Assembly: GCA_001442985.1 (NCBI GenBank)
Contig: LDYB01000015.1
Location: 1,266-65,265 of the forward strand
Direction of reading: 5' to 3'
DNA length: 64,000 nucleotides
From: Armatimonadetes bacterium DC
GTDB taxonomy: Bacteria; Armatimonadota; Fimbriimonadia; Fimbriimonadales; GBS-DC
Positions 12,767 through 64,000 of this stretch are shown piece after piece. The translations under genes and the position numbers were made by a program. The first letter of the stretch is position 1, and each line of letters starts with the position of its first letter. Under the pieces are notes generated by a model, which was not told the origin of the DNA, did not search any database, and saw nothing but the letters and a program-made list of their open reading frames with translations.

Positions 12767-12973
12767 GAGGGTGTTCGAAAAAATCGCCTCTCTCCTTGAC
12801 GGCTGAAGCCGTTCCTATAAGACGAAGCCGACCTGCGTCGGCTCCAGTAGCACGCGCATCCTGCGCGCAGACAGGGGCAGGATGCACCTGCTGTGGGAGC
12901 CAGCGAAGGCTGGCTTTGTCTATTAGGAACGGGTTCACCCGTCCTGTTCAGCGGTGATTTTTCGAACACTCTC
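12767..12973. mobile_element. About 207-bp MITE-like element with terminal inverted repeats and an internal REP-like doublet
   Basis: Left gagggtgttcgaaaaaatc vs right gatttttcgaacactctc; internal inverted pair 12809-12843 / 12898-12932, each with its own hairpin; non-coding. Confidence 0.55.
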
Positions 12974-25288: not shown

Positions 25289-25419
25289 GGTAGACCTCCT
25301 TGATGTTTAGCGTGGCTAAATTTTACCTGAGCCGCGTCGCGAAAGTCAAGGGGTGTGGAGAGGGTTCGAAAAATCGCTGCCCAGCAAGATGAGCGAACCT
25401 GCTCCTGGAAGAGCTTTTC

Positions 25420-25462: not shown

Positions 25463-26539
25463 TCAGCACCCTGCCCCGAAGTTGAACAGCACCGTCAGCA
25501 AGTCGGCGTCGTCCACCACGCCGTCGGCGTTCACATCCTCTGGCAAGCCCGAACCGGTCTGTCCAAAGGCAAATAGCACTGCCAGCAGGTCGGCGTCGTC
25601 CACGCAGCCGTCGCCGTTCACATCGCCTTCAGGTCCAGCGGGGCACGGCTCTACTGACACATACTGCTGACCGGGCACATAGTCCTCGTTGCTGAAGTCG
25701 AAGGGGAACATATCAAACGGCGGGTTCGGGCAACGCGACCATGCGGCATTCGGGAACTGCCGACTGGGGTCTCCCACATTCAGCGCGGGCAGGGTCTGAT
25801 TGGACATATAAGTGGCTACCTGCCCATCGCCGCAGGCTTGATCCCATGCGCCCCCTGTCAGCACCGCCAGAATCTTGATCGTGCCCGTGGGGTTGCCCAG
25901 CGCGCTGAGCGGAATGGCTACCTCCAGCCCGGTGGTGGCGGTCGCGGGATCGCCAATGTTGCCGGGGTCGCTCGTCACACCCAGCACATTCGAGTTGTCA
26001 AACGCGGCGAGCAGGTTGATGCTGTTATCGCCGCCCTGCGGCGTGTTCGCACCCGTACCCACAGCCACCGCGCCAATATAAGTGGACTGATTGTTCACGA
26101 GGTCGTGGAAGTCAATATAGATGTTGTCGTTGCCCTGACCATCATCGTAGCGGTTGATACCAATTGCCCAGTCGGGTCTATGCTCGAAGATCACACCGCT
26201 CATGCCCTGCACCGAGCAGTTGATACACCCGGTGGTCAGGCTGAAGGTGTTGCTGGTGTTGCGCCCCGTGTCAATATAAAGATGAATCGCGTTCCCGTTG
26301 CCCTCCAGGTTGCCCGTGATGCCGATATACAGCACGCCGTTCACACAGCGGATGAAGAGCTGGTTCAGCTCCGAGCCATAGTTCACGCCTTCCACATGGT
26401 CGCCGAAGCCCGTGTAGTTGGTCTGCGAGGCGAGGGGTGTGCCAAACTCCTGCGGGATATTGCGTCCATCGATGGTCTGCGCCAGTGCCGTCGCAGCCAT
26501 CAGCACCCAAACAGCTGCCATCATCGTTGAGCGTCTCAT
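25463..26539 (-). CDS. Secreted protein with C-terminal dockerin-like double EF-hand tail
   Basis: Signal peptide MRRSTMMAAVWVLMAATALA; tail GDVNGDGCVDDADLLAVLFAFG..EDVNADGVVDDADLLTVLFNFG; AAGGAGG RBS. Confidence 0.88.
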   Translation of the reverse strand: MRRSTMMAAVWVLMAATALAQTIDGRNIPQEFGTPLASQTNYTGFGDHVEGVNYGSELNQLFIRCVNGVLYIGITGNLEGNGNAIHLYIDTGRNTSNTFSLTTGCINCSVQGMSGVIFEHRPDWAIGINRYDDGQGNDNIYIDFHDLVNNQSTYIGAVAVGTGANTPQGGDNSINLLAAFDNSNVLGVTSDPGNIGDPATATTGLEVAIPLSALGNPTGTIKILAVLTGGAWDQACGDGQVATYMSNQTLPALNVGDPSRQFPNAAWSRCPNPPFDMFPFDFSNEDYVPGQQYVSVEPCPAGPEGDVNGDGCVDDADLLAVLFAFGQTGSGLPEDVNADGVVDDADLLTVLFNFGAGC

Positions 26540-36000: not shown

Positions 36001-36278
36001 AGGCAGGAATCGCGTGCGGTAGGTGGTATAATGAAAGCGCCAGCGCGGTGCGTGGACACCCGCTGGCGTGGCGTATCGCGGTGGTGGCGCGACACGCAGG
36101 GAGAGTATACCTCAGAGCGCCTCTGAATCCTGCTGAAGTGCCCCCCAGCGATATGCCCTGAAAAATCGGGGAGCCTGACCCCTGAACAACAGGCAGGAGC
36201 GTCGGGGTGTTTCAGACCCACCGGGCAGGAATGGGCAATTTGGGGTATAATCGAACTCGGAGTCGGGTACAATTGAGC

Positions 36279-39217: not shown

Positions 39218-40849
39218 ATGCGAAAGGGATGGTTTGTAATTGTTCTGGCAGGTCTGCTTGTGAGTTTGTTTGGGCAGGAACCCTCGCGAACACTCACGCC
39301 CAACTACGCGCCGGGGCAACTGATAGTGCAGTTTCGTCCTGAACTCACACCGGGCGAACGCGCGATGCTCCGTACGCTGGTGAATGCGCAACTCTTTGGC
39401 TATAACGACTGGCTCGATTTTGAATACTGGCAGGTCAGCCCCTATGCCGATGTGCCCGCGCTCTGCGAGCAGCTCAAGCGCACAGGTTGGGTATTACAGG
39501 CAGACCCCAACTACCAGCTGGAGCTGGCGTGGGAGCCGAACGACCCACGCTGGAGCCAGCAGGACGCCCTGCGTGTGATCCGCTGCCCGCTGGGATGGGA
39601 CTACTGGCGCGGCGGCCCCAACTTCATCGCAGGCATTCTGGATACGGGCGTACTACACACCCACCCGGACCTGCAAGCGCGCCTGCTGAGCGGCTGGGAC
39701 TTCGGTAATGACGACGACGACCCCAGCGACCCCTTTGGGCACGGCACTTTTGTTACGGGAATCGCCGGTGCTGTTACCAATAACGGCGTGGGGATTGCAG
39801 CCGTGTCGCCCGAGGGCAAAATTCTGCCCGTTAAAGTATTCACCGACGCGGGGCAGGGGTTCCTGACCGATATTCTGGATGCAATCGCCTACGCTGTAGA
39901 CCAGGGCGTGCATGTGATCAATTTGAGCTTAGGGAGTAATAATCCCCTTCCCGAGATGAACACCGCACTCCAGGCGGCGTGGAACGCAGGGGTTGTGGTG
40001 GTCGCCGCAGCGGGGAACAACAATAACACGAGCCCTTTCTACCCTGCGTACTACCCAGTGTGTATTGCGGTGGCAGCGTCAAATCTGGACGATACGAAAA
40101 GCAGCGTTTCCACCTACGGCTCGTGGGTGGATGTAACAGCACCCAGTGGGGATGTAACCAGCACCAACAGAAGCGGGGGGTACTCGCGCAACACGAATGG
40201 CTACACCTCGTACGCCGCGCCGTTCGTCACCGCGCAGGCGTTGCTGCTGTACCCTCTGGTTGCCGATTCGCCCACGGATCGCTCCGTTGCACGGGCGCAG
40301 GCAGTGCGCGAGCTGATTGAAAGCACCGCTGTGCCTGTGCCGGGCAACTATGTAGCGTATGGGCGCATCGATGTGGGCGCCTCGGTTCTGAAAGCGCTGA
40401 CCGTGCCCGTGCGGGGGCGCATCACGATTGCAGGCTATGTCGGCTCGTATGCTGGCAAAAGCGTGGAGGTGTTTGTCCGCCCGCTGAACGGCAGCACAAC
40501 GCTGGCTTCTGCAACGGGCAACGCCGACAGCACGGGCAACTTCGATATCGGCGTCTTTCTGGAGCCGAACCAGCTGGGCTATCGCGATCTGGCAATTCGG
40601 GCGCAAGGCACGCTCACAAAGCGCGTGCCGAATGTGCGCATGCGCTACCCCGGCGTGAGCGGAGTGAATCTCACCCTGATTCCGGGCGACATCAACGGCG
40701 ATAATGCAATCGACGATGCCGACTTGCTTGCCGTGCTGTTCGCCTTCGGGCAAACGAGTACGCGCCCCGAAGACATAAACGGCGACGGTGCGGTGGACGA
40801 CGCCGACCTGCTAACTGTGCTGTTTAACTTCGGGCAGACAGGCGAATGA
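39218..40849 (+). CDS. Secreted subtilisin/thermitase-like S8 protease with C-terminal dockerin-like tail
   Basis: ILDTG (D), GHGT (H), AAAGN, YTSYAAP (S); WEPNDP junction; tail GDINGDNAIDDADLLAVLFAFG..DINGDGAVDDADLLTVLFNFG. Confidence 0.92.
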   Translation: MRKGWFVIVLAGLLVSLFGQEPSRTLTPNYAPGQLIVQFRPELTPGERAMLRTLVNAQLFGYNDWLDFEYWQVSPYADVPALCEQLKRTGWVLQADPNYQLELAWEPNDPRWSQQDALRVIRCPLGWDYWRGGPNFIAGILDTGVLHTHPDLQARLLSGWDFGNDDDDPSDPFGHGTFVTGIAGAVTNNGVGIAAVSPEGKILPVKVFTDAGQGFLTDILDAIAYAVDQGVHVINLSLGSNNPLPEMNTALQAAWNAGVVVVAAAGNNNNTSPFYPAYYPVCIAVAASNLDDTKSSVSTYGSWVDVTAPSGDVTSTNRSGGYSRNTNGYTSYAAPFVTAQALLLYPLVADSPTDRSVARAQAVRELIESTAVPVPGNYVAYGRIDVGASVLKALTVPVRGRITIAGYVGSYAGKSVEVFVRPLNGSTTLASATGNADSTGNFDIGVFLEPNQLGYRDLAIRAQGTLTKRVPNVRMRYPGVSGVNLTLIPGDINGDNAIDDADLLAVLFAFGQTSTRPEDINGDGAVDDADLLTVLFNFGQTGE

Positions 40850-41208
40850 GGCGCCATCAACTGGGACGCTGGGGCGAGGAACGCGCGCGGGAATATCTTC
40901 AGGCGCAGGGCTACCGCATTCTGGAGCGCAACTGGCGCAAACGCGAGGGCGAGATTGATCTGATTGCCCAGAAAGAGGGGCTGCTGGTGTTTGTGGAGGT
41001 TAAAACGCGCCGCTCACGCCAGTTCGGCGAAGCGGAAGAAAGCATCGACGCCCGCAAGCAAGCGCAGCTCGCTGCCCTCGCCCAGCGCTATCTCGACGAA
41101 CACCCGGCGCTCCCCTTCACCGCCTGCCGATTCGATGTGGTGGTGATAGACCTCACCCACTCGCCCCCTCAGGTGCGACACTACGAAAACGCTTTCTACC
41201 CGCCTTAG
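40846..41208 (+). CDS. yraN: YraN/UPF0102 family protein
   Basis: GRWGEERA..YL..QGYRILERNWR..EGEIDLIA, VFVEVKTR, RFDVV. Confidence 0.92.
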   Translation: MRRHQLGRWGEERAREYLQAQGYRILERNWRKREGEIDLIAQKEGLLVFVEVKTRRSRQFGEAEESIDARKQAQLAALAQRYLDEHPALPFTACRFDVVVIDLTHSPPQVRHYENAFYPP

Positions 41209-44858: not shown

Positions 44859-46292
44859 ATGCGACCTTTGAAGAGTCTATGGGTTTTAGGCGCAGTTGGT
44901 AGTCTTGCGCTCAGTGCGCACGCCCAGGTGCTGTATACCACGAGCTGGGAGCCACCCGATTTCACGGCAGGGAGCTCTGCCGTCGGCGCGCAGGGTTGGA
45001 CGGCTGGCTCTGGCACGGGTTCCAGCCAGACGATATCTGCAGAGCAAGCGCGCACGGGTTCTCAAAGTCTCAAGTGGGACAATTCGGGCACCCTCAGCTC
45101 GTTTTACTCGATTCGCCGCGATCTCAACTGGGGGGCAGGTAACGACCTGTTAATCGTTACGACCTATGTGTGGATCAGCGCCAGCACGCAAGCGAACCGC
45201 CTCTATGGGCTGTATCTGTCTACAGGTACCTTGTCGAGTACGGTGCTGGGTATCACCATCAGCGGCAACGGCACGGTGCGTGCGGGCACCTCGTGGAGTG
45301 CCACCTACAGCGGCGCGGGCATCGGTCAGGCGCCTGCTGGGCAATACACCGAGCGGTGGATTAAGCTGGAGCTTACTTATGACCGCAGTTCGGGTCAGGG
45401 AACCGCGAAAGCGGAGGATCCGGGCAACTGGAGCGTTTCCGCCACCTTTAGCCAGTCCACCACGCCCACGAATGTGAATCTGGGTACTGACTATGTTACC
45501 ACCGCGGACCGCGCGGGTGTCGCCTACTTCGACGATCTGGAAATTCGCGCGGAACCAGCCCCCCCGTTTGACGGCTGGGATGAGACCGATAACGGCGGCG
45601 GCGACGCGGGTGATCTGGTGGGCACAGCCCAGAAGATTACCGCCTCAGACGCCGAACCGTGCCACACGCCAGTGGCTCGCGTGCGGGGGCTGATGGGTGC
45701 CAACGACGCCGACCTGTATGTCATCTGCATTACTGATCCCGCGCAGTTCTCCGCTTCCACCGTCGGCGTAACGGGATTCGACACGCAGCTGTGGCTGTTT
45801 GACTGCGCAGGGAAAGGCGTCGTGCATAACGACGATGACCCGGATGCCACCACAGGGCTACAGTCGCGGATTGATAATCGCACGAACTGCATTACCCAAC
45901 CGGGGATCTACCTGCTGGGCATTACGCGCTATAACCGCTACCCCATCGATGACAGAGGTCAACCCATCTGGGCGCCGGGCACTAGCGCTACCTTCCGCCA
46001 GGTGCGCTGTGCGGATGGCGTGTCCGAGAGCAAGGTGCTGGCAGGTTGGTCCGGCACAACCTCAGAAGCGGGCAGGTACATCATCGAGCTGCAAGGCGCG
46101 CACTTCGTCGATGCGAACGGCACCAGCGGCGGCGACATCAACGGCGACGGCTGCGTGGACGACGCCGACCTGCTTGCCGTGCTGTTCGCCTTTGGCGAAA
46201 CCGGACCGCGCGCTGAAGACCTCAACTGCGACGGCGTGGTAGACGATGCGGACCTGCTGACCGTGCTGTTCAACTTCGGAAACGGCTGCTGA
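44859..46292 (+). CDS. Secreted protein with beta-sandwich N-domain, one DVUA0089/PPC-like domain and dockerin-like tail
   Basis: AAGGAGG before ATG 44859; signal peptide ..ALSAHA; GWDETDNGGGDAGDL, FDTQLWLFD; tail GDINGDGCVDDADLLAVLFAFG. Confidence 0.88.
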   Translation: MRPLKSLWVLGAVGSLALSAHAQVLYTTSWEPPDFTAGSSAVGAQGWTAGSGTGSSQTISAEQARTGSQSLKWDNSGTLSSFYSIRRDLNWGAGNDLLIVTTYVWISASTQANRLYGLYLSTGTLSSTVLGITISGNGTVRAGTSWSATYSGAGIGQAPAGQYTERWIKLELTYDRSSGQGTAKAEDPGNWSVSATFSQSTTPTNVNLGTDYVTTADRAGVAYFDDLEIRAEPAPPFDGWDETDNGGGDAGDLVGTAQKITASDAEPCHTPVARVRGLMGANDADLYVICITDPAQFSASTVGVTGFDTQLWLFDCAGKGVVHNDDDPDATTGLQSRIDNRTNCITQPGIYLLGITRYNRYPIDDRGQPIWAPGTSATFRQVRCADGVSESKVLAGWSGTTSEAGRYIIELQGAHFVDANGTSGGDINGDGCVDDADLLAVLFAFGETGPRAEDLNCDGVVDDADLLTVLFNFGNGC

Positions 46293-50400: not shown

Positions 50401-51735
50401 TCAGTCGCCCGTGATGCCGAAGTTAAACAGCACCGTGAGCAGGTCGGCGTCGTCCACCACGCCGTCGCCGTTCAGGTCGGCTTCGTGGGCGCCTGTTTGC
50501 CCGAAGGCGAACAGAACAGCAAGCAGGTCGGCGTCGTCAATCACATTGTCGGCGTTGATGTCGCCATTAACAAGGTTGAACACCAGTCCCGACACATCGG
50601 TATTCAGGGACACATTGCGCACTTTACGCACGAGGCTGGTGGGCGCCCGCACCGCAATATCCACTGTGCCGGAACGAATATTGGTGTAAGTCGTGAACGC
50701 GCCTGTGCTGTTGGTGAAGAAAGTGCGTGTGTAGAGCAGGGTCGTACTGCCAGCTTCGAGGATTTGCATCTCGAAAGGCACGGTTTGCAGGTTCTGGCGA
50801 TCGAAGTTGATTTGCCCGGAGATGTTGCGCCGCACGGGGGTATAGTCGGTAATCAGCACATCGTACCAGCCTCCTGCGCGCCCGCCAGAATAACTGAACC
50901 CTTCCACCCGAATGTAATAAACTCCTGCAGGCAGGTTCGTTAGCGCTACTCTTGAGGTGAAGGGGTTAAAGGGGTCATGAGGGTCATCATCGTTGTTCTC
51001 GAGAGGGTTGAAAGCGGCGTTATACACCGTAACGATGGTGTCTGTTGCGCCATAGGTGCGCACGGTGAGGTTTCCTGCGCCGATCTCGATACGGTAGTAA
51101 TCCAGATCGGTCTGGCGATAGGTCAGAAAAGCATTGGGTATCAAAGTGAAATCGTCAGCAAGGGCGCCCACCTCTGTCGCTGTCGCGAAGGTGTCGTTGG
51201 AGCCATCGACCTCATAGGGGTCGTAGTCGGGGGCGGTACTGCCATCAAACACGCGCAGTGTATAACGCAGGCGCGCCAGATCCCCTGACCCTACGATGCT
51301 CCGCACCTGAATCAGGTAAGTACCTGCACTTAGCGTGCGCGTAATCCCCGAATCTGCGTTGGTGAAGGAGGTGTCGCGATTACCCAGGTTATTGTTGTTA
51401 GGCACATCGTCGTCGTTTTCCTGAATCAGCGTGCCAGAAGCGGTGTAGATACCCACAACGGAGTCGAAGGTGGTGTCGACACGCACGGTGTAGGTCCCCG
51501 ATTGAGGCACCGTAAACTGGTACCAGTCCACATCGTTGTCGGGGTTAATCAGGGCGCGCACCACGACTATGCGGCGGGTTCCCGATTGAATCCCCACTGC
51601 TCCGATATCGTTGGCGAGACTGATGATATCGTTACTTTCCTGCTCGTTGAGAATCGCAATCTGCGGCGGCTGCGCGATAACCGCACCCCAAAACAGTCCC
51701 AAACAGCCCAAGAGAACCGCTCGTCTCCACATCAT
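50401..51735 (-). CDS. Secreted protein with two PPC-like domains and dockerin-like tail
   Basis: Signal peptide; DVDWYQF..GTY, DLDYYRI..GVYYIRV; tail GDINADNVIDDADLLAVLFAFG..DLNGDGVVDDADLLTVLFNFG. Confidence 0.88.
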   Translation of the reverse strand: MMWRRAVLLGCLGLFWGAVIAQPPQIAILNEQESNDIISLANDIGAVGIQSGTRRIVVVRALINPDNDVDWYQFTVPQSGTYTVRVDTTFDSVVGIYTASGTLIQENDDDVPNNNNLGNRDTSFTNADSGITRTLSAGTYLIQVRSIVGSGDLARLRYTLRVFDGSTAPDYDPYEVDGSNDTFATATEVGALADDFTLIPNAFLTYRQTDLDYYRIEIGAGNLTVRTYGATDTIVTVYNAAFNPLENNDDDPHDPFNPFTSRVALTNLPAGVYYIRVEGFSYSGGRAGGWYDVLITDYTPVRRNISGQINFDRQNLQTVPFEMQILEAGSTTLLYTRTFFTNSTGAFTTYTNIRSGTVDIAVRAPTSLVRKVRNVSLNTDVSGLVFNLVNGDINADNVIDDADLLAVLFAFGQTGAHEADLNGDGVVDDADLLTVLFNFGITGD

Positions 51736-52976: not shown

Positions 52977-54017
52977 TTATTTCTGCACTGCGTCCTGCAG
53001 CTTGCGGATAGCGCGCGATTCCAGCTGGCGCACGCGCTCTTTACTCAAGCCCAGCCGCCTGCCTACCTCTTCCAGGCTCAGGCTGCCCTCGTCGGTCAGC
53101 CCGAAACGGAGCGCCAGCACCATGCGCTCTTTCTCGTTCAGAACGCGCTCCATCAGGGTTTGCAGATCCAGCTGCTCCTCCCATTCGGCAAGTTCCTGGG
53201 CGGCAATCAGGTCCGCCAGTACCGTTTCTTCGCCGTCGTGGATGGGCATCTCCAGCGAGATAGGGTTCGCCACTGAATGCATCAGGTCGCGCACCTGATC
53301 GGGGGAGAGTCCGGTGCGCTCCGCGACTTCATGGACAGTAGGTTCCCGCCCCAATTCTTGTTGCAGGAGGGCGCTTGCCTGTCGCACCTGATGCAGGGCG
53401 CGGGTCAGGTAAAGGGGCACGCGGATAAGCGCCGCCTGTTCTTGCAACGCGCGGGCAATCGCGCGGCGGATCCACCAGCTGGCATAGGTGCTGAAGCGTC
53501 TGCCCCGTTCAGGGTCAAACAGCTGCGCTGCTCGCAATAGCCCCAGATTCCCTTCCTGAATCAGGTCTGAGAAAGGCAAGCCGCGCCCCACATAGTGCTT
53601 GGCGATGGAAAGCACCAGTCGCAGGTTGGACTGGATCAGCCGCTCGCGCGCCTGCTCATCGCCTTGCCGCGCCCGCCGTGCCAGCTCCATCTCCTCTTCA
53701 GGGGTCAATAACGGGTAGCGTGCGGCGGTGGTCGCCCACCAGTGAACCGTGTCTTCCAGCATCTCCTTGTCTAACTCTTCAATCTCGCGGTCCGCCTGCT
53801 GGGTGATGCGACGAAACTCCGTCTCCGCGGCTTCCGCCTCCGAGACCACTTTCACCCCTGCCGATTCCAGCATCGCAAACATGGTCTCCAGCTGATCAGG
53901 CTCCAACCACTCGTCGGGCAAGTGAGTCAACAGTTCATCTACCGTGATGTAGCCCTGGTCTCTGGCTCGGATAATCAGCTCTTGAAGGCTCTCGTCAAAA
54001 AAGCGGTCGTCCATCAT
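52977..54017 (-). CDS. RpoD/SigA-family sigma factor, divergent, directly downstream of dnaG
   Basis: Region 1.1 (RARDQGYITVDEL), LLTPEEE, SNLRLVLSIAKHY, DLIQEGN, FSTYASWWIRRAI, region 4 LEEVG..LGLSKERVRQLE. Confidence 0.88.
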   Translation of the reverse strand: MMDDRFFDESLQELIIRARDQGYITVDELLTHLPDEWLEPDQLETMFAMLESAGVKVVSEAEAAETEFRRITQQADREIEELDKEMLEDTVHWWATTAARYPLLTPEEEMELARRARQGDEQARERLIQSNLRLVLSIAKHYVGRGLPFSDLIQEGNLGLLRAAQLFDPERGRRFSTYASWWIRRAIARALQEQAALIRVPLYLTRALHQVRQASALLQQELGREPTVHEVAERTGLSPDQVRDLMHSVANPISLEMPIHDGEETVLADLIAAQELAEWEEQLDLQTLMERVLNEKERMVLALRFGLTDEGSLSLEEVGRRLGLSKERVRQLESRAIRKLQDAVQK

Positions 54018-58032: not shown

Positions 58033-58294
58033 CCGTTCCCATAAGACGAAGCCGACCAGCGTCGGCTCAGCCCCCCAACCCCCCGTAAACAGGGGGCTAT
58101 AGCCAGCGGAGGCTGGCTTTGTTTCCTAGGAACGGCTTTAGCTGCTCTGTTGCAAGGATAGGAGCGTAAGCCTTCCCAGACCCCCTCCGTGAGGTTCCCC
58201 CTGCTTCGCAAGGGGAACCGAACCCTGCCTCGTGCTGACCGAGACAGGCACACGGAAGCCCTCGCCCCGGTTCCCCTCGCTTGCGGGGGGAACC
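58033..58294. repeat. Composite intergenic palindrome cluster (BIME/REPIN-like)
   Basis: 58033-58135 repeats the inverted doublet at 12809-12932; two further hairpins ggttcccc..ggggaacc at 58193-58219 and 58269-58294. Confidence 0.75.
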
Positions 58295-58430: not shown

Positions 58431-60275
58431 ATGGTTATGCGATACAAGGCATTACTGGCTTTTACGGCGGCATGTGCCCTCTTTGCAGGCGCGCAGGCAC
58501 AAACATGGTACGAACAAGGAGACGCAGGCGATCTGCCTGAAACCGCCCAGTCAACGGGAAGCGGTGCCCTCAGCGATATTCAAGGCACCCTCGACACGAA
58601 CGATGTGGATATGTACGCCATCTACATCACCGACCCCGCGAGCTTCAGCGCCAGCACGGTTGGCGGCGCGACATGGGACACGCAACTCTTCCTGTTCGAT
58701 GCCGACGGCAGGGGCATCGTTGCCGAAGACGACACAGGTGGGCTACAATCCACCATCAACAACGCGAACAATTGTATTCCTGGTCCCGGAGTTTACTACC
58801 TCGCGATTACGCGCTATAACAAAGACCCGCTGGGATGCAACGACGGTGGGCTGTGGTCGAGCAACGATAACAACTGCCCCAACGGACCTGAAAGCACTTC
58901 ACGGGTCGCGAGCTGGACGACCAGCACCACTGCAGCGGGTACTTATACTATCTTTCTGACGGGCGTGGCAGGCGCAAACGCAGGCGATCCTGCGGATTGC
59001 CCCGCCTTTGAGGGTTGGGATGAAACCGCAAACGGCGGTGGCGACGCGGGCGACCTGCCCGAAACGGCGCAAAGCACCAGCAACCTCGTTGCCAACGGCA
59101 TTCGCGGCGCGATTGACTCGGCTAACGATGTGGATGTGTACGCGATTTACATCAGCGACCCCGCGAACTTCAGCGCCACCACGGTGGGCGGTACCTCGCT
59201 GGACACCGCGCTCTGGCTCTTTGACGCCAACGGCAAAGGCGTGGTCTTCAACGAAGACGACCCCGACGCCACGACAGGCTTCCAGTCGCGCATCGACAAC
59301 CGCGCGTTCTGCATCACGCAGCCGGGAGTTTACTATCTGGCAATTAGCCTGTTCGGGCGACGCGCCGCAGGGTGCGACGGGGGATTAATCTGGCAGGCGA
59401 GTCCTTATCGCTCGGTACGCTGTCCCGACGGACCGGAGTCAACCTCGCGCGTTGCAGGTTGGAGCGGCAGCACTTCTGCAACAGGCAGATACCGCATCTT
59501 CCTCACAGGTGTGAGCGGCGCCTCTGCAGGCGACCCTGCCGATTGTCCGCCGCCTGCTCCCTGGGATGAAAGCTATCACGGCGGCGGCGATGCGGGCGAC
59601 CTGCCCGGCACAGCCCAGATCGTCACTCTGCCCGACCAAACGCCATGCCAGTCGCCCGTGAACCGCATTCGCGGCGATCTGGAAGCCGACGGCGTGGATA
59701 TGTATGTCATCTGCATCACCGACCCTGCCAGCTTTGTCGCCAGCACGGTGGGCAGCGCAGGGTTTGACACCCAGCTCTGGCTGTTCAACTGCGACGGCAC
59801 AGGCGTGGCGTTCAACGATGACTCCACAGGAACCCAGTCCACGCTTGATAACTCCTCTGGGTGCATTACGCAGTCGGGCACTTATCTGCTGGCAATCAGT
59901 CGCTACAACCGCGACGCGGTGGATGCAAACGGTAGCCTGATCTGGAACAACTCGCCATTCACAGGCGTCCGCTGTCCCGATGGTCCGGGCGCGACGAACC
60001 CGATTGCGGGCTGGACAGGCACAACAAGTGCAGGCGGAACCTACCAGATCCAACTGCAGGGCGCCTACTTCGTGAGCGCGCAGGGCTGCGAAGGAGGCGG
60101 CGGCTGCGAAGGCGATGTGAACAACGACGGGCGCGTCGATGACGCCGACCTGCTGGAAGTGCTGTTCAACTTCGGCTGCTTCGGCTTCTGCGGTCCGTCG
60201 GATGTGAACGAGGACGGGATTGTGGACGACGCCGACCTGTTGATTGTGCTGTTCAACTTCGGCTGCGGCGCGTAA
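58431..60275 (+). CDS. Secreted protein with three tandem DVUA0089/PPC-like domains and dockerin-like tail
   Basis: AAGGAGG before ATG 58431; three repeats of W.E...GDAGDLP.TAQ...D.Y.I.I.DP..F.A.TVG...DTQL.LF; tail GDVNNDGRVDDADLLEVLFNFG..DVNEDGIVDDADLLIVLFNFG. Confidence 0.9.
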   Translation: MVMRYKALLAFTAACALFAGAQAQTWYEQGDAGDLPETAQSTGSGALSDIQGTLDTNDVDMYAIYITDPASFSASTVGGATWDTQLFLFDADGRGIVAEDDTGGLQSTINNANNCIPGPGVYYLAITRYNKDPLGCNDGGLWSSNDNNCPNGPESTSRVASWTTSTTAAGTYTIFLTGVAGANAGDPADCPAFEGWDETANGGGDAGDLPETAQSTSNLVANGIRGAIDSANDVDVYAIYISDPANFSATTVGGTSLDTALWLFDANGKGVVFNEDDPDATTGFQSRIDNRAFCITQPGVYYLAISLFGRRAAGCDGGLIWQASPYRSVRCPDGPESTSRVAGWSGSTSATGRYRIFLTGVSGASAGDPADCPPPAPWDESYHGGGDAGDLPGTAQIVTLPDQTPCQSPVNRIRGDLEADGVDMYVICITDPASFVASTVGSAGFDTQLWLFNCDGTGVAFNDDSTGTQSTLDNSSGCITQSGTYLLAISRYNRDAVDANGSLIWNNSPFTGVRCPDGPGATNPIAGWTGTTSAGGTYQIQLQGAYFVSAQGCEGGGGCEGDVNNDGRVDDADLLEVLFNFGCFGFCGPSDVNEDGIVDDADLLIVLFNFGCGA

Positions 60276-60719: not shown

Positions 60720-61391
60720 TCACTTGCGGCGTCGGCGGAGCGCCAGCCCAGCCAGCCCGACACCCAGTGCGAGCATGCTGGCAGGTTCCGGCACCCAGTC
60801 CTGCTCCACCAGCAGCAGCGCCGCAGTGGTCTGCCCATAGCCGGGGTCGCCGTTGGTAGTCAGCGTGAAGTTTTCCGTGACGAACACGCTGTTGTAACTG
60901 CCACCCAGCGGGACAAAGATGTTCACGGTGTGCGCGCCGTCGGAGCCACCAATCGCGCTACCCTTGAAGCTGCCGCTGCCACTCCAGAGGACATTGCCCG
61001 CCGCGTCGCGCACAGTCTTCTGCCAGTCTATCTGCCCTCTGCCCCACACAAAGGCAGAGACAATAAAGGTAAATCCGTTCACCGATTTCCCCGAGATGTC
61101 ATACGCTGCATCGAAAGTGGCACCAATATGCCCAGAACCATCGCCAACAATCACGGGCGGAGTGCTGGCGTTGGTCAGGAAGGTAATCTGGGGAAATGTG
61201 TTGACGGTGACCGACACAATCGGCGGGAAGTAATAGGTCGTGTTGATGGTCACGGGCACCTGAAATGCAGTTCCCGGGTTGACGAATCCATCACTCTGGG
61301 TGATGTTTACATTCCAGCCTGAAGCCATCACAGCTGTGATCAAGCAGACGCTTGCGAGCGTCATTCCAAAGATTCTATAGCGCATCATCAT
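60720..61391 (-). CDS. PEP-CTERM sorting-domain protein
   Basis: Signal peptide; C-terminal VPEPASMLALGVGLAGLALRRRRK. Confidence 0.93.
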   Translation of the reverse strand: MMMRYRIFGMTLASVCLITAVMASGWNVNITQSDGFVNPGTAFQVPVTINTTYYFPPIVSVTVNTFPQITFLTNASTPPVIVGDGSGHIGATFDAAYDISGKSVNGFTFIVSAFVWGRGQIDWQKTVRDAAGNVLWSGSGSFKGSAIGGSDGAHTVNIFVPLGGSYNSVFVTENFTLTTNGDPGYGQTTAALLLVEQDWVPEPASMLALGVGLAGLALRRRRK

Positions 61392-61456
61392 CTCACTCCT
61401 TTCGGGTTGTTTTGGCGGGTCTCTTACCCACCACTTTATTATACCCCATTTTTGCG

Positions 61457-62635
61457 CTAATTCCTGCCCTTACGGAGCCACAGGCACTTTAAATAGAGGC
61501 TTTCAGGGAACTGAAGCAGAAACGGATGGTCGGGCGCTTGAAACGAGACATCTTCCAGAAACAGGGGACAGCCCCTGTCCGTCGCCGCGAGCCGTACCAC
61601 TTCTATCATATCGCTGAGGTCCAGCTGATAGGCGCAGGAGCAGACCAGCAGGCATCCATTTTCCGCAAGCAGAGGGAGCGCGTGATAGACCAGTTTCCAG
61701 ATTGCCCAGCGCAGGGAGTCTTTCTGACCGCGTTTTTTGGCGATGGCGGGGGGGTCCAGGATAATCCAGTCGTAGGGCGCTTCGTGAGCGGCGGCATGAG
61801 CGAGCCATTCAAAGGCGTTGGCGACCTCCCATTCGGCAGGGAGTTCGTTGCGTTCGGCGTGGTGGCGCGCCAGTTCAATCGCTTCGGGCAGAATATCCAC
61901 CCCCTTGACGCGGGCGCCTGCCCTGCTGGCATAGAGCGCGAATGCCCCCGTATAGCAGAAGAGATCCAGCACGCGCATGCCCGGCTGAATCTGGCGTGCC
62001 AGCTGGCGTCGGTTCTCGCGCTGATCCAGATAAAACCCCGTTTTCAGTCCTGTGCGCGTGGGCACGAGGAACTCCAGCCCGCTCTCGTGGATGAGAATCT
62101 GCTCCGGCACCTCCCCTGCCAGCACGGCAATAAAGGGCGTCAGCCCCTCTTCACGGCGCGATTCCATTTCACTGCGCTCCAGAATCCCCCTGGGGGCGCA
62201 CACCGCCTGCAACGCCTCCAGCCATATCGGTTTGAGGCGCTCCATGCCCGCAGTGCGCACCTGCACCACCAGATAATCGGCGAACCGGTCTACAATAAGC
62301 CCTGGCACACCGTCCGCCTCGCTGAAGAGCAGCCGGTAGGCATTCGTCTCGTTCACCACCGTTTGCCGAAGGCGGAGCGCCTGCTCAAGACGCCGAACGA
62401 AGAAGGCAGTGTCGATAGGTTCCTCGATGGTGGTGAGAATCCGCACAGGGAACCGGCTCAGAGGGTTGTAGGAGCCAATCCCGAGCCAGCGGTTCTGCGC
62501 ATCATAAACCGCCACCAGGGTCCCCACTTCGGGGGCGCCTTCCACAGCGAGAATCTCGCCCTTCTGCACCCACGGGTATCCATGCTGGATTTTTTTCTCG
62601 CGCCCCGCTTTGAGCCGCACTTTCGCCTGAATCAC
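61457..62635 (-). CDS. rlmI: RlmI-family rRNA methyltransferase (PUA + class I SAM domain)
   Basis: GYPWV, RLLFSEADGVPGLIVDRF, KTGFYLDQRENR, VLDLFCYTGAF, ILDPPA; likely GTG start at 62635 (the 675-aa track ORF is over-extended). Confidence 0.9.
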   Translation of the reverse strand: MIQAKVRLKAGREKKIQHGYPWVQKGEILAVEGAPEVGTLVAVYDAQNRWLGIGSYNPLSRFPVRILTTIEEPIDTAFFVRRLEQALRLRQTVVNETNAYRLLFSEADGVPGLIVDRFADYLVVQVRTAGMERLKPIWLEALQAVCAPRGILERSEMESRREEGLTPFIAVLAGEVPEQILIHESGLEFLVPTRTGLKTGFYLDQRENRRQLARQIQPGMRVLDLFCYTGAFALYASRAGARVKGVDILPEAIELARHHAERNELPAEWEVANAFEWLAHAAAHEAPYDWIILDPPAIAKKRGQKDSLRWAIWKLVYHALPLLAENGCLLVCSCAYQLDLSDMIEVVRLAATDRGCPLFLEDVSFQAPDHPFLLQFPESLYLKCLWLRKGRN

Positions 62636-62713
62636 GGCAGGAAGGATACCCGAAGTGTGGTATACTTTATTACGCCTCTCGTGAAGGGTGCAGGTGTGGA
62701 GGCGCGTCCGATT

Positions 62714-63445
62714 ATGTCCAAGCAACTGGAGACGAAGCGGTCCTCTCGGAAGGCGAAATCGCCCTTTGAGAAGCTGCGCATAGGGGGTTCCAGCGCATAT
62801 CGCCTCTATGCACTGATGGCGTTCTACGCGCGCGAGCGTAAGCCCCTTTTTGATGAGAAAGTAAGCCAGGTCTTCTGTGAAGTCATCCCCGAAGTGTGTA
62901 AAACCTACAACTACGAACTGATTGCCTTTCGGTTGACAAAGGAGCAGGTGCATCTGCTCATCGGTTTCAAGCCCGTGGACGCGCTGGCGGATGTGGTCAG
63001 CAACATTAAGCGCAGCACCTCGCATCGCATCTTCGAGGCGGTGCCCGAACTGGAGGCGCGAATCGGGCGACGCAACTTCTGGGCAGAGGGTTATCTTGTG
63101 GAAACGATGGGCTACGAGCAGATAGAGCCGTTCCTGCGCCAGTGGGAGCGACGCTATAAAAACGACTCGTCCCTCGTGCGGATTCTGTACGATATAGAGA
63201 TCCCCATTTCCCCCAAAGCGTGGGCGCGGGCGATGGAAATTCTGCTCCCCGTGGAGCGCATGGTGGTCAAAATGCTCTACGGGCTGGAAGGCGAGACCCC
63301 CAAGAAGCCGGAGGAAGTCGCCGAGATTCTCTCGCTCAAGCCGGAAGATGTCGAGCAGATACGCAAGGACACTGTAGAGCGTGTGCGCGCATTTCTGCGT
63401 CAGCAGCGCCACGAGCGCACGCAAGGAGGGAAGGCGCATGGCTGA
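62714..63445 (+). CDS. Fusion of an apparently inactive IS200/IS605 TnpA (Y1 HUH) domain and a sigma-70 region-4-like HTH
   Basis: GGAGG before ATG 62714 and TGnTATACT at 62658-62666; EQVHLLI (HUH), KRSTSHRI, FWAEGYLVETMG; C-terminal LLPVERMVVKMLYGLEGETPKKPEEVAEILSL; 243 aa. Confidence 0.85.
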   Translation: MSKQLETKRSSRKAKSPFEKLRIGGSSAYRLYALMAFYARERKPLFDEKVSQVFCEVIPEVCKTYNYELIAFRLTKEQVHLLIGFKPVDALADVVSNIKRSTSHRIFEAVPELEARIGRRNFWAEGYLVETMGYEQIEPFLRQWERRYKNDSSLVRILYDIEIPISPKAWARAMEILLPVERMVVKMLYGLEGETPKKPEEVAEILSLKPEDVEQIRKDTVERVRAFLRQQRHERTQGGKAHG

Positions 63446-63782
63446 GTGCCTGTTCTGCAAATTCGTGCAGCGGGAAATTCCCACACAGGTGGTTTACGAG
63501 GACGAACATGCGTTCGCGTTTCGCGATATTAACCCTCAGGCGCCCGTGCATATTCTGGTCATTCCGCGCGTTCATGTGGCGAATCTCGCGGAAGCCACGC
63601 CCGAACAGAGCGCCCTGCTGGGGCACCTGCTCTGGGTCTGTGCCGAAATTGCCCGCAAAGAGGGGATTGAATCCAGCGGTTACCGTGTGGTGCTGAACAC
63701 CAATCGCGACGCAGGGCAGTCGGTGTATCATTTACACTTTCATCTTTTAGGTGGTCGGCATCTTACCTGGCCGCCCGGGTAG
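63438..63782 (+). CDS. hinT: HIT-family nucleotide-binding protein
   Basis: CLFCK, AFRDINPQAPVHILVIP, GQSVYHLHFHLLGGR; start overlaps the upstream gene by 8 nt. Confidence 0.95.
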   Translation: MAECLFCKFVQREIPTQVVYEDEHAFAFRDINPQAPVHILVIPRVHVANLAEATPEQSALLGHLLWVCAEIARKEGIESSGYRVVLNTNRDAGQSVYHLHFHLLGGRHLTWPPG

Positions 63783-63788
63783 GTCGCA

Positions 63789-64000
63789 ATGCGTGGCGAG
63801 TTGGAGCGCAGTCTTGCCCACACTTACGGGCGTCTCACGCTCGTGAGCGCGGTGCTGATGGCGGTGGGTTGGGTGTGGCATCTGATGCGTGGCGACGCCA
63901 CCAACTGGCTCCTGAACGCAGGGATTGGCGTTTTGCTCCTGACCCCTGTGCTGGCGCTGTTGCATCTGGCATGGCTGGTTCGCGAGCAGGATCGGCTGTC
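63789..64000 (+). CDS. Membrane protein (DUF1634-like), truncated by the window edge
   Basis: MRGELERSLAHTYGRLTLVSAVLMAVG..GIGVLLLTPVLAL; open to the right edge. Confidence 0.6.
   Translation, partial: MRGELERSLAHTYGRLTLVSAVLMAVGWVWHLMRGDATNWLLNAGIGVLLLTPVLALLHLAWLVREQDRL

Follow-up and report, generated by a model that had tools for sequence, protein, structure and literature searches.

A probably domesticated IS200-type TnpA-like domain fused to a sigma-70 region 4 fold, a candidate regulator in one family of Fimbriimonadales

The subject of this study is a gene of Armatimonadetes bacterium DC (order Fimbriimonadales), which is located near the end of a 64,000-nt stretch of contig LDYB01000015.1, here called the window, and which encodes a protein of 243 amino acids, P0001. 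The data confirmed that P0001 is a fusion of a Y1 domain of the TnpA type, known from transposases of the IS200/IS605 insertion sequences (IS), with a genuine sigma-70 region 4 (sigma-4) fold. It is a single-copy gene, vertically inherited and under purifying selection, and the residues that form the catalytic center of TnpA are replaced in its product. The domestication of a TnpA together with the loss of its catalysis very probably took place in the ancestor of one family of Fimbriimonadales. The best overall explanation of its function, to which we give an even chance, is that this host gene of transposase origin acts as a non-catalytic, hairpin-binding adaptor or regulator.

Results

P0001 consists of a Y1 fold and a sigma-4 fold

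A first-pass annotation of the window, made from the DNA letters, covered positions 62658-63782, which comprise a promoter-like box, the fusion gene and the hinT gene. It recognized a TnpA/Y1 pattern in residues 25-145 of the protein and a sigma-70 region 4 in residues 175-228, and both assignments were borne out when profile and structure searches were applied. The Pfam model Y1_Tnp matched residues 29-138 of P0001 with an E-value of 6.7e-20, and the NCBIfam model transpos_IS200 scored 75.8 bits against a cut-off of 55, while the RAYT model of the same collection (REP_Tyr_transpos, NF047646) reached 30.6 bits against a cut-off of 80. The solved structures that were closest by sequence were those of the Deinococcus ISDra2 TnpA and its relatives, and the IS200 family motifs K-R-S-T-x-H in a helix and F-W-A-E-G-Y in a strand are kept. 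The Pfam model Sigma70_r4 aligned to residues 173-225 of P0001 with 18.3 bits, which is under its cut-off of 24.1, and it was matched by 19 of 20 homologues with a best E-value of 6.3e-8; the distant member P0048 scored 27.7 bits, which is over the cut-off. When the family profile was compared with the chains in the PDB, it matched region 4 of Bacillus subtilis SigA with an E-value of 1.8e-8 in a 70-residue alignment free of gaps, and it also matched dozens of other primary sigma factors. Hence, both domains were recovered in profile searches, Y1_Tnp directly and Sigma70_r4 via the homologues. Besides Sigma70_r4, no other helix-turn-helix (HTH) model matched the family, no Sigma70_r2 match was found in P0001, of which the N-terminal two thirds are the Y1 fold, and the PADLOC models of anti-phage defence did not match the fusion protein.

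An AlphaFold2 model of P0001, computed from 20 homologues, had a mean predicted local distance difference test score (pLDDT) of 81 and a predicted template modeling score (pTM) of 0.70. Foldseek searches with the N-terminal domain of this model retrieved the TnpA structures of ISDra2, IS608 and Sulfolobus with E-values ranging from 7e-8 to 1e-5, the best of them (7e-8) being that of ISDra2 TnpA, and the C-terminal domain matched region 4 of SigA (6onu_H) with a template modeling (TM) score of 0.77 and a root-mean-square deviation of 2.3 Å over 64 columns. The two folds are preceded by an N-terminal tail, in which R22, G25 and S27 are invariant across the fusion family and which has a net charge of +5 or +6 over 28 residues in most genera.

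The catalytic columns of the Y1 domain are changed

The family was aligned with its nearest canonical relatives (P0056-P0088, 144-177 amino acids), which were taken from a library of 1.84 billion proteins. All of these canonical relatives have the motif D/E-H-V-H and the helix Y-x-x-x-Q. In the fusion family, the column of the first HUH histidine is occupied by an invariant glutamine, Gln78, and the column of the second (position 80) contains histidine in the window's genus, asparagine in two genomes of genus g2, tyrosine in a subclade of g4, isoleucine or threonine in g3 and glutamine in g6. Position 80 was thus altered independently in at least four lineages, and this repeated replacement of His80 shows that selection does not maintain the old metal site. 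The column of the catalytic tyrosine contains Q143 in P0001 and Q, M, L, I, N or A in other members, and the column of the metal-binding glutamine contains Arg147. A profile alignment with ISDra2 TnpA gave the same register, with its Y132 opposite position 143. Because none of the four catalytic columns is kept across the family, and the canonical relatives keep all of them, the canonical HUH/Tyr chemistry is regarded as lost.

These results agree with the first-pass reading of the HUH motif as Q78-V-H80, and the invariance of Q78 answers the conservation check that it had suggested. The same annotation was right that the helix which normally bears the tyrosine is without one, but it had assigned the tyrosine column to F140, where the profile alignment gives Q143; neither residue is a tyrosine. 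No conserved tyrosine was found in or near helix alpha-D of the fusion family. Y134 and Y148, which had been named as fallback nucleophiles, are not conserved and were rejected. Another candidate, Y72, faces the old active site by a strand-pairing argument, but it was also rejected, as it is a phenylalanine in the window's genus.

A single-copy gene with vertical inheritance and purifying selection

In the 2.85-Mb assembly, the Y1 model matched a single gene. Full-length orthologues occur, as single copies, in 23 of the 25 genomes of the same Fimbriimonadales family, which represent six genera (g1 to g6), and both genomes that lack one are 87% complete; no orthologue was found in 16 genomes from the four sister families of the order. 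The fusion is therefore not peculiar to this assembly, which the first-pass annotation had considered as a way in which its proposal could fail. In public collections the family comprises 45 protein clusters at 90% identity, in which the open frame is full length (223-268 amino acids), and the two-domain form has only five representatives at 50% identity among the 1.84 billion proteins. In a maximum-likelihood gene tree every genus formed one group, and the number of label changes was the minimum possible. The pairwise ratios of nonsynonymous to synonymous substitution rates (dN/dS) were 0.03-0.2, and they were alike in the Y1 and the sigma-4 parts. The tree and the dN/dS values, both of which had been proposed as checks, hence speak for a host gene. 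The flanks (62300-64000) contain no inverted repeat and no tnpB is located near the gene, as had been noted at first sight.

Matches of ~285 amino acids in two stretches were considered as wider relatives of the fusion, and they were rejected, as they consist of tandem Y1 domains instead of Y1 and sigma-4. Such proteins from public metagenomes (P0050, P0076, P0078, P0079, P0087, P0097, P0098 and P0122; ~280-295 amino acids, two tandem Y1_Tnp domains) would correspond to TnpA, which is normally a dimer, in single-chain form.

An acidic sigma-4 surface in which the arginines contacting the -35 element are replaced

The recognition helix reads T-R-E-R-I-R-Q-I-E in SigA versus K-P-E-(E/D)-V-x-Q-I-(A/R) in the family and K-P-E-D-V-E-Q in P0001, which bears out the first-pass observation that RERVRQ is replaced by an acidic PEDVEQ. 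The arginines R584, R586 and R588, which we take to be the -35-contacting residues in the E. coli numbering of region 4.2, correspond to P210, D/E212 and the variable residue 214, and the equivalents of E585 and Q589 are retained. In 21 of 22 orthologues the domain has a net charge between -1 and -6, the exception being the g3 member with a charge of 0, as compared with +3 for region 4 of the genome's own sigma factor (52977-54017). K209, Q215, R225 and a basic last helix are conserved. Since the three arginines are replaced and the domain is acidic, classic reading of the -35 element is unlikely, and as regions 2 and 3 are missing, the protein is not a sigma factor. Judged from these residues, the acidic surface more likely serves protein contact than DNA reading, and binding to the tip of the beta flap or capture by regulators are possible roles of region 4 that would remain.

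Public metagenomes also contain proteins with 2-10 tandem sigma-70 region 4 domains (P0051-P0055, P0058, P0060-P0064, P0071, P0111 and P0119; 113-1722 amino acids), some of which carry one N-terminal region 2. Their copies often share the x-E-E-V-x-x-I variant of the helix with the fusion family.

The fusion gene is translationally coupled to hinT

The hinT gene is located directly 3′ of the fusion gene in genera g1, g2, g4 and g5, and in all 19 linked loci from these four genera the end of the fusion gene and the start of hinT share 4 or 8 nt (8 nt in the window). The Shine–Dalgarno sequence GGAGG of hinT sits within the last codons of the fusion gene, which explains the protein's conserved glycine-rich C-terminal tail. 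These data show that the two genes form a translationally coupled unit, with a conserved promoter-like box upstream, in four genera. All neighbors other than hinT vary between genera, for example rlmI in the window and a DinG-like helicase gene in g4. The adjacency to rlmI was seen in one further genome of the same genus, G003; in G001 the contig starts just upstream of the gene, which leaves this adjacency out of view, and rlmI is absent from the corresponding position in g2-g6. Thus, the divergent rlmI gene and the overlapping hinT gene were correctly described for the window, and of the synteny expected from them the linkage to hinT is conserved in four genera, while that to rlmI is limited to the genus.

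The copies of the deep-branching genera have other surroundings: that of g3 is located between pyrB and a VKOR/DsbA-like gene, that of g6 adjoins nrdR, and hinT has other neighbors in these genomes. In the sister families (loci L050-L056), a gene for an mtaB/miaB-like radical-SAM methylthiotransferase precedes hinT, and in most of these loci it overlaps the hinT start; this gene is probably the ancestral hinT partner in the order. An origin of the sigma-4 part from a former gene upstream of hinT was rejected, because it is the mtaB-like gene that occupies this place in the sister families.

Promoter-like signals and other features of the window

Upstream of the start codon (Table 1), the GGTATACT core is found at a distance of 38-60 nt in 19 loci from four genera, which are the hinT-linked loci with enough upstream sequence, and GGCAGGAA is located 17-18 nt further 5′ of this box in most loci of g1, g2 and g4. 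GG-TAnAnT is the usual -10 box of this lineage. Hence, the extended -10 box and the ribosome-binding site attributed to the gene in the first-pass annotation are both present and conserved, but the box was not called by a generic promoter scan.

Between this genome (G000) and G003, the intergenic region within 62620-62800 is nearly identical and the gene shows no difference in its first 84 nt, although the synonymous divergence (dS) of the gene is 0.62. This near-identity suggests a constraint at the nucleotide level on the divergent control region or on the 5′ part of the mRNA. On the minus strand (62635-62651), the rlmI gene apparently starts with GTG at 62635 and has no Shine–Dalgarno sequence; a GGGTATCCT box ends 7 nt upstream of this start, which is a leaderless arrangement, and the box and the GGCAGGAA motif of the opposite promoter overlap.

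Table 1. Position of the fusion gene, its parts, its neighbors and the repeats in the window
Feature	Coordinates	Strand	Remarks
Fusion gene, coding sequence of P0001	62714..63445	+	ATG at 62714, stop codon 63443-63445; 243 amino acids
Basic N-terminal tail, residues 1-28	62714..62797	+	Net charge +6, predicted disordered, pLDDT <60
Y1_Tnp domain (IS200-like HUH fold), residues 29-138	62798..63127	+	Pfam, NCBIfam, Foldseek
Degenerate HUH motif Q78-V-H80	62945..62953	+	Codons cag gtg cat, read directly
Helix alpha-D, residues 134-147	63113..63154	+	Tyr-bearing helix of active TnpA; helix in the model
Sigma-70 region 4-like domain, residues 171-232	63224..63409	+	Profile and fold matches; net acidic; helix K-P-E-D-V-E-Q
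GGCAGGAA motif	62636..62643	+	-35 position, 17 nt 5′ of the TATACT hexamer
TGgTATACT, extended -10-like box with GGTATACT core	62658..62666	+	Read directly from the letters
GGAGG ribosome-binding site	62698..62702	+	11 nt 5′ of ATG; kept at homologous loci
hinT, HIT-family hydrolase	63438..63782	+	114 amino acids; Pfam HIT, E-value 3.7e-30
rlmI-like rRNA methyltransferase gene	61457..62635	-	Divergent neighbor; Pfam PUA_3 and Methyltrans_SAM
REPIN-like copies	12802-12950, 58033-58151; partial 25358-25406		
Dockerin/EF-hand-like repeats	25476-25630, 40650-40850, 46096-46283, 50416-50568, 60076-60266		

A second -35-like promoter class was observed in this genome beside the ordinary cTTGAC class. 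It has the consensus G(G)CAGGAA(TCG), followed after a strict 17-nt spacer by a GGTATAAT-type box. GCAGGAA showed a sharp peak at a 17-nt spacer before TATAMT, with about 10-13 sites in the genome and 1-16 sites per genome across the family. Sites in the window are located at 62636-62666, at about 36003-36032 and, on the minus strand, at 61438, where the PEP-CTERM gene 60720-61391 lies downstream; the genes downstream of such sites include cspA, gmk, a pilin-like gene and the PEP-CTERM gene. GCAGGAA-N17-TATAMT was found in 24 of the 25 family genomes versus 1 of 16 outgroup genomes, but a control pattern, CTTGAC-N19-TATAMT, was also about tenfold rarer in the outgroups. The idea of a family-specific regulon was therefore rejected, and the matching distribution of this promoter class and the fusion gene is uninformative. 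A hairpin at the -35 position of this class was rejected as well, as it was not enriched, being seen at 2 of 13 genome sites, compared to 8.7% in controls. In genus g4 an inverted arm, TTCCTG...CAGGAA, is located upstream of the fusion gene, where it probably represents the end of the dinG-like gene.

REPIN-like repeats in the genome

The window contains copies of a mosaic repeat that resembles REPIN or BIME elements (Table 1), which has ~80 copies genome-wide and is the source of the commonest 14-mers after a CRISPR repeat. The element consists of two inverted arms (GACGGCTGAAGCCGTTCC..GAAGCCGACCTGCGTCGGCT and AGCCAGCGGAGGCTGGCTTTG..GGAACGGCTTTAGCCGTC) with optional inserted modules, and strands of the arms are GAAGCCGACCTGCGTCGGCT and AGCCAGCGGAGGCTGGCT. 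Each arm is a hairpin with a 7-bp stem, and the whole element folds as a long hairpin of single-stranded DNA (z = -10.4). The hairpin core had at least three hits in 13 of the 25 family genomes (up to 145), whereas each of the 16 outgroup genomes had 0 to 3 hits, which is near chance; the core is common to genera g1, g2 and g4, and absent from the sister families. No canonical Y1 transposase able to move this repeat was found in the genome. The copy closest to the fusion gene is that at 58033-58151, which is 4.6 kb off, and the distance is 7-9 kb in other genomes. The co-occurrence of the repeat and the gene is confined to one clade, which offers no independent contrasts. Retention of H80 was considered as a marker of REP (repetitive extragenic palindromic sequence) maintenance, and it was rejected: the lineages without H80 are mostly without the hairpin, but G014, which has Q-V-N, has 49 hits. 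A search for a link of the fusion protein to the repeats at 12809 and 58193 found no evidence of it.

Two other kinds of repeats were observed. Outside the window, the same genome contains a CRISPR-like repeat, GTTTCAATCCCTCACAGGTAGGCTACAAAC, with ~150 copies, which is the commonest source of 14-mers. Several genes for secreted proteins, on both strands, contain repeats that look like the dockerin or EF-hand type, with units of 84-87 nt encoding D-x-N-x-D-G-x-x-D-x-x-D-L-L-x-V-L-x-x-F-G (Table 1).

Discussion

If the gene indeed encodes a non-catalytic adaptor or regulator, the fusion protein would work without cutting DNA. The structures of IS608 and ISDra2 TnpA are those of obligate dimers, in which DNA hairpins are bound at a place other than the active site. 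By analogy, the Y1 fold of P0001 may retain both the dimerization and the grip on a hairpin of single-stranded DNA (or RNA). The acidic sigma-4 copy would then serve as a protein-contact module for a surface on which sigma region 4 normally docks, the candidates being the beta flap of RNA polymerase or a sigma-4-binding regulator, and the combined outcome would be a structure-specific adaptor or regulator of transcription. This particular mechanism, in which hairpin binding is combined with a protein contact made by the sigma-4 domain, is possible but less likely than not.

Several points weigh against this explanation. That a dead Y1 fold binds hairpins is an assumption made from the behavior of its active relatives. 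The REPIN-like repeats, which are the only obvious hairpin candidates, never flank the gene, and nine genomes keep the fusion gene without any hairpin match. The deep-branching g3 and g6 members are unlinked to hinT. Finally, the sigma-4 domain might still bind double-stranded DNA via K209, Q215 and the basic C-terminal helix.

A more far-reaching version would place P0001 beside the RNA-guided transcription factors that are dead nucleases, as their protein-only counterpart. In this version a dead TnpA dimer would recognize hairpins or cruciforms, either in REPIN-like elements or in single-stranded promoter DNA, and the sigma-4 copy would replace sigma region 4 on the beta flap, so that the polymerase would be recruited or blocked at structured DNA and not at a -35 hexamer. 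The GCAGGAA-N17-TATAAT promoters, including that of the fusion gene itself, could be the regulon. Taken as a whole, this combination is improbable.

The first alternative to a hairpin-binding adaptor is an ordinary dimeric HTH transcription factor, in which the dead Y1 domain would be a scaffold for dimerization or sensing, and a four-helix HTH of the sigma-4/LuxR type would bind a double-stranded operator, for example in its own promoter. Textbook LuxR/GerE (NarL/LuxR-type) proteins have the same layout, with a four-helix HTH at the C-terminus behind an N-terminal module, and the conservation of K209, Q215, R225 and the basic last helix, as well as of GGCAGGAA-N17-GGTATACT at the operon promoter in three genera, is consistent with this alternative. 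However, the HTH is net acidic throughout the family and the three DNA-contacting arginines of region 4.2 are lost, a conserved dyad operator was not found upstream, and the Y1 core is constrained as strongly as the HTH, seemingly beyond what a scaffold needs. On balance we consider this alternative rather unlikely.

A partnership with HinT has a still smaller chance. The protein would be made in step with the HIT hydrolase and might tether it to nucleic acid, or might be held or released by HinT depending on the levels of adenylated nucleotides. Translational coupling often marks interacting proteins, and the stop/start overlap with the Shine–Dalgarno sequence in the last codons is kept in all 19 linked loci of four genera, where the other neighbors vary. 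On the other hand, the g3 and g6 members are located elsewhere, with hinT next to other genes, and no structural or sequence hint of a contact was seen. Moreover, the sister families couple hinT in a similar way to mtaB, so the linkage may only reflect the borrowing of an upstream promoter by hinT.

It is very improbable that the protein is a still-working, RAYT-like enzyme with non-canonical residues, which mobilizes REPs and thereby maintains the REPIN-like repeats. It is the sole Y1-family gene in a genome with ~80 copies of the element, the hairpin core of the repeat is restricted to the same bacterial family, glutamine can coordinate metal, and some Rep proteins are active with a HUQ variant. 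These facts are opposed by the lack of a conserved tyrosine in or near alpha-D and the free replacement of the second histidine, by the low score of the RAYT model, and by the location of the repeats, which do not flank the gene and are 4.6 kb off at the nearest; in addition, G014 combines Q-V-N with its 49 repeat hits, and nine genomes with the gene have no hairpin match. The last alternative, a functionless decaying transposase relic or an artefact of annotation or assembly, agrees with the names of close homologues in public databases ("IS200/IS605 family transposase", "RayT" or "hypothetical"), but it is refuted by the full-length frame in 45 clusters and 23 genomes, the dN/dS of 0.03-0.2 and the genus-congruent tree.

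Few bacterial cases of a transposase turned into a host protein are known, namely the RAYTs, the TnpB-derived TldR and the dead Cas12f that works with sigma-E, and the RAYTs, which are the Y1 example, keep the catalytic center. In the fusion family that center is dispensable, yet the fold is strongly constrained and joined to a component of the transcription machinery. If the hairpin-binding adaptor is real, it would represent a second route, besides RNA guidance, by which parts of IS200/IS605 elements are recruited to control RNA polymerase, and it would help to study the recognition of DNA hairpins in vivo. The labels "IS200/IS605 family transposase" and "RayT" on such genes mislead censuses of mobile elements.

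Comparison with known systems places the fusion protein near several of them. It shares the fold and sequence homology with the IS200/IS605 TnpA proteins of ISDra2, IS608 and S. solfataricus/S. tokodaii. In contrast to them, it has Q-V-H or a further degenerated motif, is without the catalytic tyrosine and the metal-binding glutamine, and carries ~100 extra C-terminal residues with the sigma-4 fold, and its gene is single-copy, vertically inherited and without IS ends or tnpB. Its C-terminal 60-70 residues align without gaps to regions 4.1-4.2 of SigA and have the same fold as region 4 of sigma-70 factors of groups 1-3; unlike these factors, it has no region 2 or 3, its surface is acidic, and other residues stand in place of the arginines that contact the -35 element. 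PhyR, which contains a sigma-like domain, is another case of a sigma module in a protein that is not a sigma factor, but the fusion protein is without a receiver domain.

Like the RAYT (TnpA-REP) proteins (PMC5581495; PMC8266576), the fusion protein is a single-copy, vertically inherited, housekeeping-like relative of Y1 transposases in a genome with REPIN-like repeats. RAYTs are domesticated proteins in which the catalytic center of IS200 is kept (Bertels et al., PMC5581495); they retain the HUH/Tyr center and are flanked by REPs, while the fusion has neither feature and is closer to the IS200 model. A C-terminal HTH behind a Y1 core, with no association to REPs, is also known from TnpA-Y1 subclass 2.1, the members of which carry Bac_DnaA_C, HTH_23 or HTH_28 domains (Quentin et al. 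2018, PMC6006769). According to the same study, all TnpA-Y1 classes keep the HuH motif and the tyrosine, and the word "sigma" is absent from its text. The cores of subclass 2.1 belong to class 2, with HuH and Y...NP (PMC6006769), which is different from the dead, IS200-like (class 1-like) core of the fusion family, which is without Y...NP and is followed by an HTH of the Sigma70_r4 type. Thus, the first-pass statement that no described family has this architecture is too broad for a Y1 domain with a C-terminal HTH (PMC6006769), and it stands for the combination of a dead IS200-type core with Sigma70_r4, as neither such a core nor a Sigma70_r4 fusion was found in a literature search, which was incomplete.

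An analogy can also be drawn with TldR, which originates from TnpB, and with the dCas12f that works with sigma-E (PMC12259090), as these too are derived from IS200/IS605 elements, have lost catalysis, are kept by the host and are tied to sigma or RNA polymerase. They differ in being RNA-guided derivatives of TnpB/Cas12 with experimental support, whereas the fusion protein is a TnpA derivative, protein-only, with the sigma module in cis, and is known from its sequence. Hence, the fusion family is a relative of the known Y1-plus-HTH proteins and domesticated transposases, and it is confined to one uncultured bacterial family.

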